DNA from: Candidatus Heimdallarchaeota archaeon
GTDB lineage: Archaea > Asgardarchaeota > Heimdallarchaeia > Heimdallarchaeales > Heimdallarchaeaceae
Reading direction: 5' to 3'
DNA: 10,135 bases
Assembly: GCA_016839945.1 (NCBI GenBank)
Contig: JAEOTE010000142.1
Coordinates: forward strand, 1 to 10,135
Shown: in pieces, positions 309 to 10,135 of the stretch
How the letters are laid out: every line of letters starts with the position of its first letter
How positions within the stretch are numbered: position 1 is the stretch's first letter
The notes under the pieces: generated by a model
Databases searched by the model: none
The model's input: the letters and a program-made list of their open reading frames with translations, nothing else
Told to the model about the DNA's origin: nothing
Position numbers and translations under genes: made by a program

Positions 309-409
309 GAAGCGTTCCCCTCATATTTTATATTAAGTAAGAATATTGATAAGACTTTATTTTTATAAAATTTAAAGTATTGAGTTCTAATTTTCTCGAG
401 TTCCTTCAT
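305..409 (-). CDS. Putative 34-aa small protein (MKELEKIRTQYFKFYKNKVLSIFLLNIKYEGNAS)
   Basis: Its ATG (409-407) overlaps the upstream gene's TGA (ATGA), and its own TGA (307-305) overlaps the downstream ATG (ATGA). SD GGAGGT at 421-416, 6 nt before the ATG. No recognisable homology. Confidence 0.35.
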   Translation of the reverse strand: MKELEKIRTQYFKFYKNKVLSIFLLNIKYEGNAS

Positions 410-1263
410 ATAGCGACCTCCAGCATATTCATAACAACAAAAGCTAAACCATTAAGGATGAAAATAACGAAAAGAGCTATTGTACCTGCTTTTTCGACCC
501 TTAACTGTTTGATAACCACCACTGATTCAATTAATAATCCTACGAAAATTAACTGAATTACGAATAATAAAACAATGACCCAAACATCCATTTGCAAAGG
601 AGAAACTGAGTATTCAAACTCAAAAACCAAGGACATGAGAATGCTTAACACGATAAAAGGTAATTGTGCAAAAATTATACCTTGAAATAAAGCTAACCTA
701 CCTATCTTTCTTTTGAATATTATACTTACTAGGAACTCACTAATTATGTAAGTTATAAGAACTGAAAGAATAAAAAAAACTGGTGCAAAATAGTCAGGAA
801 CTATATATGAAGGATAAAGGAAAATTGGGGTAACAGAAAGAAAATATGTTGCTACTCCAAAACCTATGAATAGAAGAATTGAGAAACCTAATGACCTCAC
901 TGGATCATTTGCTATAAATTGGAAGATATGTCTTAGAAAGATTGTATGCATAAAAGAAAAACGACCATATACTTGCAAACCAGGTGCAGAAACATCTAAC
1001 TCATCCTCTATTAGAGCATAAGCTCTGCTTCCTTTTTCAGTTAGAAGATATTTCTTTGATGTGTCTTGAGTGATTAATTCACCGAGAGTATCTAAGTGAT
1101 GATAGAGAGTTCCAACTTTCATCTGAAACCTTTCTTGGATTTCAGTAAAAGAAACGATTTTTTTTTCACCAATAAAACTAAGTAACTCTCTTCTAATTTC
1201 ATTTGAGAGAGCTTTCCATATTTCAGGTGAAGTTCGTTTCTTTGAAATCATAATAACTAACAT
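406..1263 (-). CDS. ArsR-like winged helix-turn-helix domain fused to a ~5-TM membrane domain (Yip1-like); putative membrane-bound regulator
   Basis: N-terminus ALSNEIRRELLSFI...SFTEIQERFQMKVGTLYHHLDTL...YLLTEKG is a typical ArsR/HTH_20 wHTH. The C-terminal ~160 aa has five hydrophobic segments. The start may be ATG 1251 (MISKK) instead of 1263. Confidence 0.8.
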   Translation of the reverse strand: MLVIMISKKRTSPEIWKALSNEIRRELLSFIGEKKIVSFTEIQERFQMKVGTLYHHLDTLGELITQDTSKKYLLTEKGSRAYALIEDELDVSAPGLQVYGRFSFMHTIFLRHIFQFIANDPVRSLGFSILLFIGFGVATYFLSVTPIFLYPSYIVPDYFAPVFFILSVLITYIISEFLVSIIFKRKIGRLALFQGIIFAQLPFIVLSILMSLVFEFEYSVSPLQMDVWVIVLLFVIQLIFVGLLIESVVVIKQLRVEKAGTIALFVIFILNGLAFVVMNMLEVAI

Positions 1264-1299: not shown

Positions 1300-2424
1300 T
1301 TAATGGGATTGAATTATGTTGTACATAGTATCTCTCTGAACAGGAATTCTTTTTGCATCTCTAATCAAATCAATAAATTCTTCTATTGATTTCTCCTCAC
1401 CAAATTGCCCACCTGCACTTTTAGTAATAGATTCAACAAAAAGCGTTCCTCCTAAATCATTTACTCCTGCATTAAGAGAAAGCTGAGCAAACTTTGGACC
1501 TAGTTTAACCCAAGAAGCTTGAATGTTTGGAATAACTTCTCCCATGTACAATCGAGCAGTACTAAAAAGTGCTAAATCGTGCATCCCTGTACTTCCAGGC
1601 CTCGCTCCTAAATATCTATAGAGTATAGTTTTATCGTGCACAAAAGGCAATGGTACAAATTCAGAAAAACCTTGGTAAATATCTTGGATATGTTTCAACA
1701 GAACTAGGTGTTCAGCTTCATCTTTATGTGATTCAATATGGCCATACATCATGGTTGATGTTGTCTTTAATCCTAATTGGTGAGCTGTTAAAACAATATT
1801 CACCCATTGATTGGTTGATATTTTTTCTGGGCAAATAATCTTACGAACATCATCTACTAAGATTTCAGCTGCTGTACCTGGCATTGAATCTAAACCATTG
1901 CTTATTAATTCCTTTAGAACATCTGCAACAGATTCTCCGGTGATTTGCGACATGTAAGCTATTTCAGCAGGGGAAAATGCATGTATATGTAACTTTGAAG
2001 TAGTTTGTCTGATTGTTTTGAGTATTTCTAAATAATAATCGAATGTTAATTCTGAGTCTAATCCGCCTTGAAGACAAACTTCAGTACATCCCCTTGCAAT
2101 TGCTTTTTCAACTTCTATCTTTATATCATCCAAAGACATTCGAAAAGCTGTCACATTGTTATTCTTTTCATCAGCTCTAAAGGAGCAGAATCTGCAAGAT
2201 CCTATACAATGGTTTGTAAAATTAATATTCTGATTTAAAACAAAAGAAACATTATCCCCTACTTGCTGTTTTCTTAAATCATCAGCTAAGGAAGTTTGAA
2301 TCCATAAATCCCTTCCTCTTTTGCTTAGCATTTTTGTGAGTTCTAATATCTCCTCTTCATGTGATTCATGAAAAGAAGATAAATCACACACTTCTTCTAT
2401 TTTAGGGGGAGAAAGCTTCTTCAT
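1300..2424 (-). CDS. cofH: FO synthase subunit 2 (5-amino-6-ribitylamino-uracil:L-tyrosine 4-hydroxyphenyl transferase), radical SAM
   Basis: ADDLRKQQVGDNVSFVLNQNINFTNHCIGSCRFCSF (CxxxCxxC), EVCLQGG, HIHAFSPAEI, SMPGTAAEIL, TMMYGHIE, NIQASWVKLG and NDLGGTL are CofH/MqnC-family motifs. Direct adjacency to cofG favours CofH over MqnC/MqnE. Confidence 0.92.
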   Translation of the reverse strand: MKKLSPPKIEEVCDLSSFHESHEEEILELTKMLSKRGRDLWIQTSLADDLRKQQVGDNVSFVLNQNINFTNHCIGSCRFCSFRADEKNNNVTAFRMSLDDIKIEVEKAIARGCTEVCLQGGLDSELTFDYYLEILKTIRQTTSKLHIHAFSPAEIAYMSQITGESVADVLKELISNGLDSMPGTAAEILVDDVRKIICPEKISTNQWVNIVLTAHQLGLKTTSTMMYGHIESHKDEAEHLVLLKHIQDIYQGFSEFVPLPFVHDKTILYRYLGARPGSTGMHDLALFSTARLYMGEVIPNIQASWVKLGPKFAQLSLNAGVNDLGGTLFVESITKSAGGQFGEEKSIEEFIDLIRDAKRIPVQRDTMYNIIQSH

Positions 2425-3487
2425 TTCTATAATGTTCCTCTATTATTTTGCGTATTCTATTGCTTAAATATTTTTCATATTCAGGGTAAACTGGTAACCT
2501 TGCCTTTAGAGAATAGTCTTGTTGTTCCAATTCTTGTCTCAGCTCTTCTTCTTTATGCCATTTCATATTAGGGTTAATATAATCTATAGATATTGGGGAA
2601 ACACCACCCAAATCATTAGCTCCACATCTTAACGATTCTATAATTCTCTCTGTGTTAAGATTAGGTGGTATTTGAATACTAATTTGTGAAGGTAAAATAC
2701 ATCTAGCTAAAGAAACAGAGAGTAAATATTCCTCTTCTGAAGGTGGAGGATTTCTTTGCATCGGTGTTCCTTGCTGAGGATTGAAATTTTGAACTATTAC
2801 TTCCTGAATATGTTTATACTTCTTACTTAATTTTGCTAATGCATCAAGAGATTCTATTCTTTCATCCCATGTTTCCCCTATACCAACTAAAATTCCTGTT
2901 GTGAAAGGTATTTTCAATTTTCCAGCATTCTCAATTACTTCTATTCGTAAACTTGGGTTCTTACCTGGAGAATACTGATGGGCTTCTCCTTCAGACATTA
3001 GTCGGTCACTACTTGATTCTAGCATTAATCCAAGACTTGCGTTACAATCCTTTAGATATTCCAACTCTTTGTATGGTAAGACACCTAAATTAGAATGAGG
3101 TAGTAAAAATTGACTTAATGCAACCTCACAAAAATAATGGACGTATTCGAATGTTGAGCTAAAACCTTGGTCTACAAGAAACTCTCTCGCTGATTGATAT
3201 TTATCTTCAGGTTTTTCTCCTAGAGTTAATAAAATTTCAGAACATTTGGATTCTTTAGCTTGTTTTATCATTTGTAGATAGTTTTCCTTTGTAATCCAAC
3301 TCTCTGGATCATCAGAAACAAAACCACAATAACTACATCGATTTCTACATTGTTGAGTTACAGGAACAAAGATATTCCTAGAAAAAGTTATTTCATTACC
3401 ATAATTTTTTCTAGCAATCTCACTACTCTTGGAGATAAGTTCTTCCTTGTTGTTTTGCAGTAGTGATAGATAATGTTCAACACTCAT
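2402..3487 (-). CDS. cofG: FO synthase subunit 1 (7,8-didemethyl-8-hydroxy-5-deazariboflavin synthase), radical SAM
   Basis: ITFSRNIFVPVTQQCRNRCSYCGF (CxxxCxxC), LPHSNLG, NASLGLMLE, IPFTTGILVGIGE, HIQEVIVQNF, QIPPNL, NDLGGVSP and RLPVYP are CofG signatures. Overlaps the cofH start by 23 nt. Confidence 0.93.
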   Translation of the reverse strand: MSVEHYLSLLQNNKEELISKSSEIARKNYGNEITFSRNIFVPVTQQCRNRCSYCGFVSDDPESWITKENYLQMIKQAKESKCSEILLTLGEKPEDKYQSAREFLVDQGFSSTFEYVHYFCEVALSQFLLPHSNLGVLPYKELEYLKDCNASLGLMLESSSDRLMSEGEAHQYSPGKNPSLRIEVIENAGKLKIPFTTGILVGIGETWDERIESLDALAKLSKKYKHIQEVIVQNFNPQQGTPMQRNPPPSEEEYLLSVSLARCILPSQISIQIPPNLNTERIIESLRCGANDLGGVSPISIDYINPNMKWHKEEELRQELEQQDYSLKARLPVYPEYEKYLSNRIRKIIEEHYRNEEAFSP

Positions 3488-3511
3488 TCAGACTCAGCTT
3501 CTTTAGCTATT

Positions 3512-4189
3512 TTACCTTTTATCTAATATTAATGAAACTAAGAAACCTTCCTCTAGTTCCTCTATATTTGTTATTTTAAGTTGTGGTGCAGTGGATATAT
3601 CTTCAATAACCTTTTCACTAAAAAGGTGCTTTGCATTAATACCACCTGCAAAAGCTGGAAAGTAAAAAACATACATTCTATCAATAAGATTATTTTTTAG
3701 AAATTGTGTTATAATTGTAGAACCACCCTCAACTAGTATCTTATTTATGTTATATTTCGATTTTAAGATTTCAAGAATAGATTTTAAATTAAGAAATCCG
3801 CTTTTTTCATCTTCTGAAACTGCAATCACATCTGTTTTACTTTTTGCAATTTCTTCTTTTTTTTCTTCAGAACATTTTTCAGAAACGAACACCAGAGTTT
3901 TGTTGACTTTCTGATTTTTGAGAACTTTTGAATTTAGAGGGATTCTACCATTAGAATCTAAAATTACTCTGAAAGGAGGTGGAGATTTAGGTTTCACATA
4001 CCTTATTGTTAACATTGGATTATCAGTAATGATTGTGTTAACCCCTACTAATATTGCGTCTACTGAATTTCTTAACTCATGAACTCTTACCCAATCTTCT
4101 GTTGTTGAAAGAAAAAGAGCTCCCTTATCCGAAGCAATAACGCCATCAAGAGAACTTGCTACATTAATTATTATTTCTGGTCTTTCCAT
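3512..4189 (-). CDS. arfC: 2,5-diamino-6-ribosylamino-4(3H)-pyrimidinone 5'-phosphate reductase (stand-alone RibD C-terminal domain; ArfC/Rib7 type)
   Basis: NVASSLDG, D..RVHELR...DAILVGVNTIITDNPMLT, RVILDSNGRIP and ILVEGGS motifs. It has no N-terminal Zn-deaminase domain, unlike bacterial RibD. Confidence 0.85.
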   Translation of the reverse strand: MERPEIIINVASSLDGVIASDKGALFLSTTEDWVRVHELRNSVDAILVGVNTIITDNPMLTIRYVKPKSPPPFRVILDSNGRIPLNSKVLKNQKVNKTLVFVSEKCSEEKKEEIAKSKTDVIAVSEDEKSGFLNLKSILEILKSKYNINKILVEGGSTIITQFLKNNLIDRMYVFYFPAFAGGINAKHLFSEKVIEDISTAPQLKITNIEELEEGFLVSLILDKR

Positions 4190-5322
4190 TTTACTAACCT
4201 ACCTTTGTACATTTGAAATCCTATATCAGAAGGTTCTGCTCGCATTGTGATTGCACTGTATATATCTTTAGATAATTTCAAGTTGGGATTTTCTAAATCT
4301 ATTCCTATAAAATCTGCACTAAATCCTTCTTTAATTTGCCCAATTTTCTTTTTTGCTATCAATCCAGGGTTGACTGTTATAGATTTTAATACTTCTCTTG
4401 GTGTGATTTTCTGATTATTATTCCGTGCATTAATGAGCGTGAAAGCCATTAATCTAAATGGATCAGGATTACAGCTTAGAACATTATCTGTTCCCAAACC
4501 TAGAATTATCCTCTTCCTTAGGATGGATTCTATTGGAGGAAATTTAAGTCCATAATACAAGCTTGAAGTTGGGCAACAAATTACACACATATTTTTTTCC
4601 TTTAATAGAGATAATTCATCTTCATTTGCATATGTTGCATGAACAACATAATCAAAAACTGAATAATCACATACCAACTCTATATCTCTTTTACCATATT
4701 TTGAGAGAGAATTAGAAAGCAGCTCCTCTGATTCAGAAACGTGTATCCCTACAAGTTTTTCTGGATTATTCTCTTTCAATGATTTTGTTGTTTTCACAAT
4801 TTCCTTATCTACTGCAAAAATATCAACAAAACCTAAACCATCACTTTCATTGAAAACATCTTCTAAATCTCCTTCTGCTTTACTTCTTCCAAATATCAGC
4901 CCTCTTAAAGGAAAACTAGATAATATGTTCTTGAGTAAAACAACTCCTTCCACTCCTTGTTCTCTAAAATCGAAAAAAGTAGTATAACCGTTGTGTACTA
5001 ACATCTCCAAAGAATTTTGTATACTATCTCTTCGTTCTTCTATAGTGCTAGTATTCAACTTATTATGTTTTATTCCTTCGGGACCTACAGTTTCATCAAG
5101 TGATAATCCATAACCTTGATCTTTAAGAAAAGCATCAGCAACATGAGTGTGTGCATTAACAAAACCCGGTATCAAGACATAAGAGGGGGGTAGCAGATAC
5201 GTTATTGGTTTTTGTTCTTTAGTTATTTCAACAATAATGCCTTGTTCATCTACTTGAATATACACACTTTGAACAAATTCCAAATCGGGCCCAATCAAAG
5301 CATTAGCACATATAGTGACCAT
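4171..5322 (-). CDS. Metal-dependent amidohydrolase, deaminase subtype (COG0402-like archaeal family)
   Basis: LIPGFVNAHTH (HxH), GIHVSE (HxxE), VHAT, CPTS, LGTDN and G.IKEGFSAD motifs. ATG 5322 (MVTI) is preferred over GTG 5331. Overlaps the reductase start by 19 nt. Confidence 0.88.
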   Translation of the reverse strand: MVTICANALIGPDLEFVQSVYIQVDEQGIIVEITKEQKPITYLLPPSYVLIPGFVNAHTHVADAFLKDQGYGLSLDETVGPEGIKHNKLNTSTIEERRDSIQNSLEMLVHNGYTTFFDFREQGVEGVVLLKNILSSFPLRGLIFGRSKAEGDLEDVFNESDGLGFVDIFAVDKEIVKTTKSLKENNPEKLVGIHVSESEELLSNSLSKYGKRDIELVCDYSVFDYVVHATYANEDELSLLKEKNMCVICCPTSSLYYGLKFPPIESILRKRIILGLGTDNVLSCNPDPFRLMAFTLINARNNNQKITPREVLKSITVNPGLIAKKKIGQIKEGFSADFIGIDLENPNLKLSKDIYSAITMRAEPSDIGFQMYKGRLVKWKDQK

Positions 5323-5349
5323 TTTGCACACGTTAAAATATTTGTGAGT

Positions 5350-5410: not shown

Positions 5411-5454
5411 TGCAACCTTTGAAATTAGCGTCAAAGTAAAAATAGTTGATAAAG

Positions 5455-7671
5455 ATGGTTCGAGTTAAGAATCCAGATGAAATACGTGATATGATTAAAA
5501 ACCATCCAATGAATCAAAGAAGAGTTTTTTCTATCTCAGCTCACATTGATCATGGAAAAACAACCACTAGTGATTATCTATTAAGAAAAGCCGGTTTAAT
5601 GTCAGATGCTGATGCCGGTAAGAAAGTTATGATGGATAGTGATGAAGAAGAACAAGAAAGAGGTATAACAATTTTTACAAGTGTTGTTCTGCTTTCATAT
5701 GAATTAGAAGGTCAAACTTATCTTTGTGAAATTAATGACACTCCAGGTCACATCTCATTTACTGGAGAAGTAAGCAGAGCTCTCAGAGGAAGTGATGGAG
5801 TTATCATTCTTGTTGATGCTCTTGAAGGTGTAATGACTCAGACTGAAACCAATATTAGACTCAGTCTAGGGGAAATGTGTAAACCAGTATTGTTCATTAA
5901 CAAAGTTGACAGACTTATTTCTGAATTAAGATTACAACCTCAGGATGTTTTTGCAAAAATTGACACAATTATTACAGGTGTCAATAAGCTCATCAGAGAA
6001 AATTCACCTGATGAAATAGGTAAAGGATGGCAGGTTTCATTCAAAGATGGTACTGTTGCAGTAGGATCTGCAAAAGATGGTTGGGCTTTCAATATGACAA
6101 CTTTGCAGAAACTACAAATTAAACCTCAAGATGTTTTTGCAAAGTATGATGAGAATGATAAAGAATGGTTAAGAGATAATCTCCCTCTTGAAGAACCTTT
6201 ATTGGAAATGGTTATCAAACATCTTCCAGATCCAGTTGAAGGACAAAAACTTAAAATCCCAGCAATTTGGGATGGAGATTTAGAAAGTCCTGAAGGAAAA
6301 GCTCTTTTAAATTGTGACAGAGATGGTCCTCTTTTAGGAATGATTACAAAAATATTCATTGAACCAAAATCAAAAAGACCAACTCTCATAGGTAGAGTAT
6401 TCTCTGGTACTTTAAAGAAATCCGATACACTCCATCTTATTGGAAAGAAAACTGAAAGTCGAATTAAAAGATTAGGAGTAATGGAAATTACGGACATTCT
6501 AGATGTTGAAGAAGTTCCAGCAGGAAATCTTTTTGCTATTTATGGTTTCATTTGTCCAGCAGGTGAAACCTTTGTTCGAGCGGAAGACAAAGGAAAACTG
6601 AAATCTTTTGAAGATATTTCTTATGTTGCAGAACCTGTTGTAAGTAGAACAATCAAACCAAAAGATCCTCAAGATATAGCAAAACTTGGTGATGTTGTAT
6701 CTAAGTGGATTATGGCTGATCCTACAGCTGCTTTTAGACATGATGAAGAATCGAAAACATATGTATTATCAGGAATAGATCCTCTGCAAATAGAAATTCT
6801 TGTTACACGTATTCAAGAACAAGTTGAAATTGATGTTAGTGACCCTATTATTGTTTATAGGGAAGTTCCCACAAAAAATGGTTTGACTATACACACCAAA
6901 TCTCCAAATGGTCACAACAGAATAATGTTACATGTTGAACCAATGAACCAAGAAGCTGTAGATTTAATCAAATCAGGTAAAGTACATAATGATCAAGATA
7001 GAAGAGAGAGAGCAATAATGCTACAGCAAGAAGCAGGATGGGAAGCTAAGAAAGCAAGAAGAATATGGTTTGTAAAGGATACAAATGTACTTCTAGATGC
7101 AACTACTGGAGTGCAGAGATTAGATAATATAAAAGCCTATATTATACAAATTTTCTTTGACTTTTGTGAAGGATCAACTTTAGCTAAAGAACCTTTAATG
7201 GCTTCTAAGTTCATAATCACAGATGCAAAAGTTCACGTTGATCCAGCTCATACAGGATATACTGAAATAATGCAAATGTGTTTGGCAGCATTTCATACAA
7301 CATTCTTAACAGCAGAACCTCAGATTCTAGAACCTATGTTGATAGTTGATATTAAAGTTCCTAATGATTATGTTGGAAATATGTCCAAAGTTATAACACA
7401 ACATAGAGGGATAATACTTGATATGACACAAGAAGGAGAGAGTACAAATATAAGAGGAAAACTACCTACGGCTGAAACTATTGACATAGCAGATGAGATA
7501 AGAGGAAGCAGCTCTGGACGTGCATTCTTTGGTTATCAATTCCTCGGTTTCGAACGTGTTCCTACTAACTTGGAAGCAGAAACTATTGAATCGATTAGAG
7601 TTCGTAAAGAACTGGCCCCACAAGTACCTGATGTTAATAATTGGGATCGTTTTATTTACAAGCGAACCTAA
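5455..7671 (+). CDS. fusA: Archaeal elongation factor 2 family translational GTPase, divergent (possible aEF-2 paralog)
   Basis: G1 AHIDHGKTT, G2 ERGITI, G3 DTPGH, G4 NKVD, G5 GSA; domain IV SPNGHN; domain V PQILEP and IRGSSSGRA; ~738 aa, the archaeal EF-2 length. ATG 5455 is preferred over TTG 5446. The diphthamide loop reads HVDPAHTGYTE. Confidence 0.92.
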   Translation: MVRVKNPDEIRDMIKNHPMNQRRVFSISAHIDHGKTTTSDYLLRKAGLMSDADAGKKVMMDSDEEEQERGITIFTSVVLLSYELEGQTYLCEINDTPGHISFTGEVSRALRGSDGVIILVDALEGVMTQTETNIRLSLGEMCKPVLFINKVDRLISELRLQPQDVFAKIDTIITGVNKLIRENSPDEIGKGWQVSFKDGTVAVGSAKDGWAFNMTTLQKLQIKPQDVFAKYDENDKEWLRDNLPLEEPLLEMVIKHLPDPVEGQKLKIPAIWDGDLESPEGKALLNCDRDGPLLGMITKIFIEPKSKRPTLIGRVFSGTLKKSDTLHLIGKKTESRIKRLGVMEITDILDVEEVPAGNLFAIYGFICPAGETFVRAEDKGKLKSFEDISYVAEPVVSRTIKPKDPQDIAKLGDVVSKWIMADPTAAFRHDEESKTYVLSGIDPLQIEILVTRIQEQVEIDVSDPIIVYREVPTKNGLTIHTKSPNGHNRIMLHVEPMNQEAVDLIKSGKVHNDQDRRERAIMLQQEAGWEAKKARRIWFVKDTNVLLDATTGVQRLDNIKAYIIQIFFDFCEGSTLAKEPLMASKFIITDAKVHVDPAHTGYTEIMQMCLAAFHTTFLTAEPQILEPMLIVDIKVPNDYVGNMSKVITQHRGIILDMTQEGESTNIRGKLPTAETIDIADEIRGSSSGRAFFGYQFLGFERVPTNLEAETIESIRVRKELAPQVPDVNNWDRFIYKRT

Positions 7672-7734: not shown

Positions 7735-9258
7735 TTATTCGTCTTCGACGAATTCAGTGCCCAATTGTTCATAAAAGAGATCTTCTTCAGTTATTGGTTC
7801 AAGTTCTCCTTCAATTATTATACCTGCTTCAAATTCCTCGAAATCTTCTATGTCGTCAAGTTCAGGTTCTAGTTCTTCCTCAAATCTTGATGAGAATCTT
7901 TCCTGAATATATCCTACTAAAGCGGTTAGCAAGAGAATGAAAACCACAATTGGTATAAGTAGTAATACAACTCCTTCTGGTTGTAACATTTCTATTGAGT
8001 TATAGATTGATGGCGGGTATCGTAAAACAAACAACAACACATCAGGATTAAGAATTGCATATAATCCTGCAAGCATTATTCCAACTCTGAAAAGAACAGA
8101 AACTCCTACATAAACTAATGTCATTAATGGTTTAATCAAAACTGAAGTTCCTACCAATTTGTCATCTACTCTGGCATCACTGTGAACTAATCCATCATGA
8201 TACCTTTGGAGTCTTGCTGTTAGTTTATCTTGTTGTCCCCCTGGTTTGGCAAAAAGAGAGTCAGAAGCTTTTTCTATAAAATAAGTCATTCCAGCTAGAC
8301 CAAACTTTCTAGCTATAGAGCTTCCTGTACCACTGATTGATAAAGAAGCTTTTGAATCCTCATCATCTTCTTCTGGCTTTTCTAAAACTTGTTTGGGGGT
8401 TGTGTCAGTTACTCCTAACCTGAATTCTCTCAAACGATCTAAAGCTCTTAAAACCCTTTGTTGTCGACTTTGAGCGGGATTCAGTATTTGCGTTATATAT
8501 GATATCTGCAACGATATTTCAAGGAACAAATAGGAAGCTAACGCCATTAAAACAACATTGTTCGAGAATAACTCACCAACTCTATTTGTTGGACTGAATG
8601 AAAATACACCAGGCCAGAAAAGATGTTGAGTACTTGCATGAAATACAATGAGCTGAGTGCAGATGAAAGCTGTTGCAGCTGTACGCATATCTGCGCGGAA
8701 TAGAAACGCAACTAAAGTTAATATAAACAAGATTACAAGAACCATCAATATCGATGCTCTATTTGATGGTTGTAATGAGTTAAAAACTCCTCCACTGAAA
8801 AGATTTCCAAATGATCCAAATAAGTTAGTTGCTGATCCACCAAAGAAAACGTCAGGAGTTAATTCCCCTGTGGGATTAGGTGGGTTAACACCATTGAATA
8901 GATCTTCAGTAACAAATGCTCTAGCACCTAGAAGTATAGCCGCAGCATCAGCACTAGAAATTGCTAAGAAAATCATTAGTGGTGCAGAAAAAATCACGAT
9001 TGCAATATTTTCAAAGAAAACAAAGATAAATGTCATAGAATTAAGAAGGTATCCATCTGGGAATTTAGTGGTATTAGATAGTTCAATTAAACCATTTGTA
9101 GGATGTAATAAAGATAACAAAACCCATAGTGCAATACCAAAGGCAGCTAAACGTCCCACTAAATGAGTTATTATTGTTTGATATCGAGCACCTCTTATTC
9201 TACGTTGAACTCCTCTTATTCCGAGGTCAATAAATCTTGTATCTGCTAAAGATTCCAT
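7735..9258 (-). CDS. Polytopic membrane protein of unknown function (~507 aa) with a large polar loop and a very acidic C-terminal tail
   Basis: About 7-9 hydrophobic segments. Start reassigned from 9351 to ATG 9258 (MESLADTRF), because SD GGTGAT (9270-9265) precedes it and this removes an 86-nt overlap with the DUF58 gene. Confidence 0.82.
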   Translation of the reverse strand: MESLADTRFIDLGIRGVQRRIRGARYQTIITHLVGRLAAFGIALWVLLSLLHPTNGLIELSNTTKFPDGYLLNSMTFIFVFFENIAIVIFSAPLMIFLAISSADAAAILLGARAFVTEDLFNGVNPPNPTGELTPDVFFGGSATNLFGSFGNLFSGGVFNSLQPSNRASILMVLVILFILTLVAFLFRADMRTAATAFICTQLIVFHASTQHLFWPGVFSFSPTNRVGELFSNNVVLMALASYLFLEISLQISYITQILNPAQSRQQRVLRALDRLREFRLGVTDTTPKQVLEKPEEDDEDSKASLSISGTGSSIARKFGLAGMTYFIEKASDSLFAKPGGQQDKLTARLQRYHDGLVHSDARVDDKLVGTSVLIKPLMTLVYVGVSVLFRVGIMLAGLYAILNPDVLLFVLRYPPSIYNSIEMLQPEGVVLLLIPIVVFILLLTALVGYIQERFSSRFEEELEPELDDIEDFEEFEAGIIIEGELEPITEEDLFYEQLGTEFVEDE

Positions 9259-9265
9259 TTTTTTA

Positions 9266-10135
9266 TCACCCTTGACGTTGCATCCTATTAAATTGAGACA
9301 TAACTGTAGGTAAGAAATCATCAGGTCCAACAGAAACTGAAGTAGTGTCATATCGTCTCAAAATCTTGAACATGTTTTGACGTTCTCCAAGTTGTTTTTC
9401 AACCATTGCATGACCAATCATCTGTTCTACAGGTGTGAGTTGTTGAGAAACAATCTCAAACCATGGACCAAATGGAGAGATTACAGTGATGTTGTGTTTT
9501 CTTGCACGTGCTCTTCGAACTGCATTAACTACTTTTTGTGGATTTGATTCAAGATCAGTTATTAGAACTATGTAGGCAGAACGCTTAACTCGTTGTAGAA
9601 GATACTCTATTGCCACTTCTAAATCAGATTCATCTTGAGGTTTAACATGTGCTAAAGCTTCAAGAAACTGGAAGAGATGAGAACGAACTGAAGTAGGTTC
9701 TACCCAATTCCGAATTTCTTTATCATAAACACATAAACCAATAATATCACTTTTTTCAAATGCTAGATGAATAAGTAGAACAGCACTTCGAATAGCGTAC
9801 TCTAATTTAGTATTACGAGGAAGACCAGCACCCATGCTAGCGGAAGAATCAATTAACACAACAACGCGTATATTCTCTTCTGATTCGTACTCACGAACCA
9901 TCATCTTACCAGAACGAGAGAATGCTTTCCAATCAATAAATTTGAAAGGATCTCCCACTTGATATTTTCTGATACCCCAGAAATCCGATCCCATACCTTT
10001 TAATTTTGTACGATGGAATCCAAATAATACGCCTAGTTGTCTTTTTCTTCCTATTAACTCTAGTTTCTTTATGTCTTCATAGCTTGGATAAACTAAAATC
10101 TCTGTTTTAGTTTTTATTTCCCCTTCTGTAGCGTA
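9266..10135 (-). CDS. DUF58 family protein with vWA-like domain (MoxR-associated); 5' end lies beyond the window
   Basis: The frame stays open upstream of the ORF-track Met to the window edge: ...EILVYPSYEDIKK...GFHRTKLKGMGSDFWGIRKYQVGDPFKFIDWKAFSR...VREYE. This matches the DUF58 pattern VYP...G.eF..lReY.pGD....IdWka.Ar. MIDAS-like IDSSASM and LITD are present. Confidence 0.9.
   Translation of the reverse strand, partial: YATEGEIKTKTEILVYPSYEDIKKLELIGRKRQLGVLFGFHRTKLKGMGSDFWGIRKYQVGDPFKFIDWKAFSRSGKMMVREYESEENIRVVVLIDSSASMGAGLPRNTKLEYAIRSAVLLIHLAFEKSDIIGLCVYDKEIRNWVEPTSVRSHLFQFLEALAHVKPQDESDLEVAIEYLLQRVKRSAYIVLITDLESNPQKVVNAVRRARARKHNITVISPFGPWFEIVSQQLTPVEQMIGHAMVEKQLGERQNMFKILRRYDTTSVSVGPDDFLPTVMSQFNRMQRQG

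Follow-up and report, generated by a model that had tools for sequence, protein, structure and literature searches.

An archaeal elongation factor 2 with a rewritten diphthamide loop in a Heimdallarchaeaceae genome without detectable dph genes

The window analysed here is a stretch of 10,135 bp (G+C ~33 %) that forms positions 1 to 10,135 of contig JAEOTE010000142.1 in the genome of a Candidatus Heimdallarchaeota archaeon (assembly GCA_016839945.1). Its plus strand carries a gene for archaeal elongation factor 2 (aEF-2). Diphthamide, which is borne by a histidine at the tip of domain IV of elongation factor 2 (EF-2), was for a long time regarded as common to all archaea and eukaryotes and as important for the maintenance of the reading frame. 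In the protein encoded by the window this histidine is kept within a rewritten loop, and the genome has no detectable gene for the diphthamide enzymes Dph2, Dph5 and Dph6. The gene and the features on which the following argument draws are:

5455..7671, plus strand: aEF-2 gene, 738 amino acids (aa) and a stop codon (Pfam domains, TIGR00490, matches to solved EF-2 structures, G motifs)
5749..5760, plus strand: HISF following the G3 motif, with the replacement D101S in the near-universal HVDF
6772..6795, plus strand: domain III sequence GIDPLQIE (canonical G(M)GELHLE), which includes the clade-fixed replacements G442D, E443P and H445Q
6901..6918, plus strand: second domain IV loop, SPNGHN, with Gly486 where canonical EF-2 has the Lys that contacts tRNA (K584)
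7126..7128, plus strand: Asn558, counterpart of E660, which in canonical EF-2 forms a salt bridge with R702
7222..7281, plus strand: diphthamide loop at the tip of domain IV, HVDPAHTGYTE for the canonical HxDxxHRGPAQ (translation, HMMER alignment, loop table)
7249..7251, plus strand: His599, codon CAT, corresponding to the His that receives diphthamide (H701 by Drosophila numbering)
7252..7254, plus strand: Thr600, codon ACA, in place of the invariant Arg (R702)

The HTGYTE frame belongs to a long open reading frame (ORF) at 5446-7671 on the plus strand. Since homologs begin with MV(R/K)VKN, the start was placed at the ATG at 5455, which gives a product of 738 aa. Pfam searches on this protein return GTP_EFTU, GTP_EFTU_D2, EFG_III, EFG_IV and EFG_C, i.e., domains G, II, III, IV and V are all present, and the GTPase motifs are intact (G1, AHIDHGKTT, at residue 29; G3, DTPGH, at 95; G4, NKVD, at 149). 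With HMMER, solved archaeal EF-2 proteins (Pyrococcus 5h7j and others) align over the full length at E values of 1e-165 to 1e-150, and a full-length match at E 1e-165 fixes the fold. The NCBIfam model for aEF-2, TIGR00490, is matched with 656 bits over positions 3-719 of its 720.

At the tip of domain IV, window positions 7222-7281 of the plus strand translate to DAKVHVDPAHTGYTEIMQMC, with the DNA at 7249-7266 reading CAT ACA GGA TAT ACT GAA for H-T-G-Y-T-E. The original prediction, a reading of the DNA letters without database searches, had proposed an HTGYTE loop in place of HRGPAQ, with the target His codon at 7249-7251 (about residue 599) and the changes R>T and PAQ>YTE. DNA, translation and HMMER alignment bear this out to the base: CAT encodes His599, the next residue is Thr600, and Y-T-E follows the Gly. 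The identification of H599 as the diphthamide-site His and of T600 as the replacement of the Arg comes from the HMMER alignment with Pyrococcus 5h7j, which sets 'dakvhvdpahtgyteim' over 'daqvhednvhrgpaqiy'. Two further positions of domain IV are altered. The second loop reads SPNGHN, as in 118 of the 120 homologs described below, for the SPNKHN of dph-positive Heimdallarchaeia. Around Asn558 the sequence is LDNIK, where relatives with dph genes have LREIK and other Asgard archaea without them LDRIK; at the position of E660 the window's own family, Heimdallarchaeota AB_125 included, has Asn and the other dph-less families compared have Arg.

The loop is a stable property of a large group of sequences. 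The homolog set comprised the 120 closest database clusters (61-100 % identity), compared in columns of a MAFFT alignment and originating from Candidatus Heimdallarchaeota (including AB_125 and Heimdallarchaeum aukensis), Heimdallarchaeaceae, Thorarchaeota and the 'Asgard group'. His is found in 120/120 of them. It is followed by T-G in 119 and by I-G in one, then by F or Y (rarely L or S), by T, S or N, and by E (rarely Q), while the canonical EF-2 sequences aligned for comparison have H-R in 62/62. With H-T-G in 119 of the 120 nearest homologs, the variant is not due to chance or sequencing noise, and the near-invariance of the rewritten residues across the clade shows that the domain IV tip is under purifying selection. 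A 50 % clustering of 1.8 billion proteins contains one Asgard-type representative at 58 % identity (H-T-S); the next are about 40 % identical and carry H-R-G.

A quick IQ-TREE phylogeny (LG+G4, 59 rows, 740 columns), unrooted and used for clade membership only, unites the H-T sequences (HT clade) with 100 % SH-aLRT support on a stem of length 0.6. The window protein is sister to the EF-2 of Heimdallarchaeota AB_125 (P0038), to which it is 82-83 % identical. The EF-2 of dph-positive Heimdallarchaeia join eukaryote-like sequences (support 100). EF-2 paralogs of the type known as aEF-2p fall outside both the HT clade and canonical EF-2, and the largest group of them, which includes the paralog from the window's own genome, is fully supported.

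Genes for diphthamide synthesis were searched with models for Dph2 (PF01866), Dph5 (TIGR00522) and Dph6 (PF01902) in 83 genomes of the same class, that is the window's own genome and 82 relatives, and the family counts given here refer to the 82 relatives. The control genomes gave the expected results, the four archaea among them being positive for all three models. The own genome, a metagenome-assembled genome (MAG) of 3.0 Mb in 186 contigs, 88 % complete and 2.4 % contaminated, gave no match to the Dph2 model and none to the Dph5 model. A partial PF01902 match of 19.8 bits on contig C4 was considered as a remnant of Dph6 and rejected, the protein being QueC (TIGR00364, 145 bits). The relatives gave the following counts:

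Family f1 (the window's own, including the single-contig genomes G006 and G007): Dph2 0/30, Dph5 1/30, Dph6 0/30
Families f2, f3, f4 and f7 together: Dph2 1/28, Dph5 0/28, Dph6 0/28
Family f5 (sister family in the same class): Dph2 21/22, Dph5 22/22, Dph6 22/22
Family f6: Dph2 2/2, Dph5 2/2, Dph6 1/2

The lone Dph2 match in the second group, at G040:C524:36-419, is a partial one (69 bits) in a frame of 162 aa on a very short contig and comes from a family, f4, that is otherwise dph-less. Among the 16 other genomes of the window's own order, Dph2 was found in one, Dph5 and Dph6 in none. Because identical searches succeed in 21-22 of the 22 f5 genomes, the genes would be detected if they were present. 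Across the 83 Heimdallarchaeia genomes, dph genes and loop type partition cleanly by family.

A search with the aEF-2 model finds two genes in the window's own genome, the aEF-2 on contig C128 and a paralog of 661 aa on contig C36 (L002:916-2901, minus strand) that is 31 % identical to the window protein. This aEF-2p matches the Pfam domains G, II, III and V; it has no EFG_IV match, and the three domain IV loops, including the acceptor His, are absent. The same pattern recurs in a sample of ten further genomes, seven of them dph-less (from five families) and three dph-positive. Every dph-less genome (7/7) encodes one aEF-2 of 727-747 aa, with the loops SPNGHN, L(D/E)(N/R)I and HTG(F/Y/L/S), and one paralog of 655-702 aa. 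The dph-positive ones (3/3) have a single EF-2 of 811-817 aa with SPNKHN, E660 within LRE(I/V), and HRGA. None of the sampled paralogs has any of the three loops, and the single-contig genomes G006 and G007 encode exactly one aEF-2 and one paralog, with no third EF-2 gene. The window gene is the sole EF-2 in its own genome with a domain IV tip. The possibility that it is itself the divergent paralog was rejected on the loop table and the tree, given that both loops and the EFG_IV match are kept. Its conservation, together with the absence of any other candidate gene, suggests that it is the bona fide ribosomal translocase aEF-2.

The original prediction had stated that several dph-less lineages carry a second EF-2 with altered motifs, and named among its checks a search for dph2, dph5 and dph6, a search for a second EF-2 gene and a phylogeny. 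All three have now been run, and at genome level they support its proposal of an unmodified factor with different decoding-centre contacts that probably resists ADP-ribosylation of the diphtheria-toxin type. The dph genes are undetectable in the own genome and nearly so across the family and order, and the tree places the window protein within the dph-less Asgard aEF-2 clade, apart from aEF-2p and eukaryote-like EF-2. A second EF-2 does exist in this lineage, but it is the gene on C36, and the window gene would rather be the translocase proper.

The rewriting of aEF-2 extends beyond domain IV. When 11 sequences of the HT clade are compared with 62 H-R sequences, Thr replaces the Arg of the diphthamide loop in 11/11 against Arg in 62/62, and six other near-universal positions are fixed differently in the clade: D101S, V133N and Q136L in the G domain, and G442D, E443P and H445Q in domain III. 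At D101, for example, Ser occurs in 11/11 HT-clade rows and Asp in 60/62 canonical ones. The paralogs largely keep the canonical residues at five of these positions (D101 in 16/17, V133 in 14/17, Q136 in 14/17, G442 in 17/17 and E443 in 13/17), and the aEF-2p of the window's own genome retains all five, D101 within an HVDF motif. The two copies hold complementary parts of the ancestral consensus, which hints, as a pattern only, at subfunctionalisation. That dph-less Asgard archaea have split the ancestral features between their two EF-2 genes, with the tip in aEF-2 and the switch II-adjacent and domain III residues in aEF-2p, is nevertheless a speculative proposal to which we give little credence.

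The state of the loop and its interpretation have already been published. Narrowe et al. 2018 (Genome Biol Evol, PMC6143161) reported that dph1/2, dph5 and dph6 are absent in nearly all Asgard archaea, Korarchaeota and Geoarchaea, and that most dph-less genomes encode a paralog, aEF-2p, in which both the diphthamide loop and the SPHKHN loop are missing. For the dph-less aEF-2 proteins, the same authors described R702T, replacement of E660 by Arg or Lys in 21 of 22 cases, loss of conservation at K584, and retention of H701 under selection; from homology models they proposed that the loop-loop contacts are re-balanced. LC3 Heimdallarchaeota, in contrast, keep the dph genes and a single eukaryote-like EF-2 (PMC6143161), and according to Eme et al. 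2023 (PMC10307638) the Hodarchaeales are the only Asgard archaea in which dph genes occur together with a single canonical EF-2. Beyond the 2018 study and the genome surveys citing it, a literature search turned up no functional work on aEF-2p or on Asgard EF-2 lacking diphthamide.

To this published clade the window protein adds another member. It shares with the other members the change of R702 to Thr, the retention of H701 and G703, the loss of K584 (here Gly), a genome devoid of dph2, dph5 and dph6, the presence of aEF-2p and its placement in the tree. The sole difference from the proteins described in PMC6143161 is the E660 counterpart, which is Asn rather than Arg or Lys, the Glu being lost either way; AB_125 may be the one exception among their 22 proteins. 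The Asn of this family and the retention by the paralog of G-domain and domain III residues that are replaced in aEF-2 are the two small additions made here.

Comparison with canonical archaeal EF-2 (Pyrococcus horikoshii 5h7j; TIGR00490) shows the same length class, five domains, G motifs and position of the acceptor His, with 5h7j aligning from end to end at ~40 % identity. The differences are HRGPAQ to HTGYTE, SPN(K/R)HN to SPNGHN, E660 to N, HVDF to HISF and GELHLE to IDPLQIE, and the window genome has no dph genes with which the modification could be made. The EF-2 of the dph-positive families f5 and f6 (Hodarchaeales or 'LC3' in the literature) and eukaryotic eEF2 belong to the same protein family, and f5 and f6 also to the same taxonomic class. 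Both differ in having 811-840 aa, eukaryote-type insertions, HRGA(G/N)Q, SPNKHN and E660; in f5 and f6 the gene is present in a single copy alongside complete dph sets, and its product groups with eukaryote-like sequences. The aEF-2p encoded beside the window gene in the same genome is likewise a translational GTPase with domains G, II, III and V, and differs in its shorter length, the lack of the domain IV loops and His, and the canonical D101, V133, Q136, G442 and E443.

The explanation that we favour, and consider highly probable, is that the window gene encodes the working aEF-2 translocase of a Heimdallarchaeaceae lineage that does without the Dph pathway, with a His599 that is most likely bare and a tip that has been re-fitted around it. 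Like nearly all Asgard archaea outside the Hodarchaeales, this lineage would have lost Dph2, Dph5 and Dph6, and it would have gained or kept a second EF-2-like GTPase. In the absence of an enzyme to add the 3-amino-3-carboxypropyl group, His599 is most likely an ordinary histidine. R702, which pairs with E660 in canonical factors, has given way to Thr600, E660 to Asn558, and the tRNA-contacting Lys of the SPxKHN loop to Gly486, while the residues after the Gly have changed from P/A/G-A/G-Q to an aromatic-polar-Glu series (Y/F, T/S/N, E). The tip presumably still enters the decoding centre during translocation, where its contacts are probably altered; Thr600, Asn558 and Gly486 may re-balance the loop-loop contacts that are supplied elsewhere by R702-E660 and K584. 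By analogy, the factor is predicted to resist diphthamide-requiring ADP-ribosylating toxins, because diphthamide-deficient eukaryotic cells are resistant to them.

Several points weigh against this explanation. One is that His599 has been strictly retained although the lineage is supposed not to modify it, a fact for which the explanation gives no reason. Narrowe et al. (PMC6143161) themselves held an unknown diphthamide pathway or another modification to be possible. In such a scenario His599 would still carry a modification, which might be diphthamide made by non-orthologous enzymes or some other adduct, and the T, Y/F and E of the loop would form the recognition surface of a different enzyme; that all 120 homologs keep the His after the loss of the Dph enzymes speaks for this. 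However, the domain IV loop extends to the decoding centre with the His at its very tip, and conservation of the His does not require a modification, since an unmodified His is tolerated in viable eukaryotic dph mutants. Moreover, no candidate enzyme was found: a pair of radical S-adenosylmethionine (SAM) genes in the window was considered as an alternative His-modifying system and rejected, as they encode CofH (449 bits) and CofG (428 bits), which are not Dph2-like and belong to an FO/F420-precursor cluster on the opposite strand. We regard a modified His599 as unlikely.

A further adverse point is that the window protein does not reach the equivalog cut-off of TIGR00490 (656 bits against 738.45). 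This might suggest a specialised EF-2 derivative that no longer translocates, the real translocase being the other EF-2 gene or one missing from the assembly. The replacement of seven near-universal residues (the six listed above and R600T), five of which the paralog retains, points in the same direction. The low score, however, reflects the reach of the model and not a loss of function, since none of 10 other sampled Heimdallarchaeia genomes attains the cut-off, the canonical dph-positive ones included; such scores probably explain why 'GTP-binding protein' is the only name that many Heimdallarchaeia EF-2 have at NCBI. The window protein is full length, with five domains and a conserved tip, whereas the only other EF-2-like gene is without the three domain IV loops and the EFG_IV match, and the two single-contig genomes have no third gene. 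A non-translocating role is thus very improbable.

The remaining adverse points concern the dph genes. Their absence from the own genome would by itself be weak evidence, given a MAG that is 88 % complete and split into 186 contigs, and the argument rests on the relatives. In addition, one genome of the same genus encodes the sole Dph5 match of the family (G008:C131:5399-6082), without Dph2 or Dph6; at 279 bits it exceeds all Dph5 scores in the dph-positive families (174-214 bits), and its contig is possibly foreign to the bin. That the genes are missing only through incompleteness, with the loop a neutral polymorphism of a diphthamide-bearing factor, is nonetheless scarcely credible: all three are gone here, in 29-30 of 30 family genomes (two of them single-contig, so that incompleteness cannot account for the absence) and in four further families, which makes 58 dph-less genomes overall against searches that are positive in f5, and the loop variant is fixed in the clade rather than polymorphic.

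Lineages that do without diphthamide, and the way in which their EF-2 tip compensates, are relevant to the question of how translocation is kept accurate and to the origin of the eukaryotic translation apparatus, a case already made in 2018. With the present analysis one further genome joins the published pattern, which is also reproduced on a larger genome set. If the two EF-2 copies were to act in sequence or together, or if His599 bore a novel modification, translocation in these archaea would be unlike that of every studied system, and it might tolerate or even exploit more frameshifting.

All other genes of the window are on the strand opposite to the EF-2 gene, and none is related to it:

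406-1263, minus strand: DUF7347/HTH_20 protein
1300-2424, minus strand: cofH (score over the NCBIfam cut-off)
2402-3487, minus strand: cofG (score over the NCBIfam cut-off)
3512-4189, minus strand: riboflavin-type pyrimidine reductase of the archaeal type (166 bits, under the 186-bit cut-off)
4171-5331, minus strand: chlorohydrolase-like amidohydrolase
7735-9351, minus strand: ORF of 538 aa
9266-10135, minus strand: protein with DUF58 and VWA domains, running off the window end

The 538-aa ORF, which lies downstream of the EF-2 gene and convergent with it, has no Pfam or NCBIfam match. The cluster at 1300-5331 looks like an operon for the synthesis of deazaflavin (FO/F420 precursor) in a Heimdall-group archaeon.

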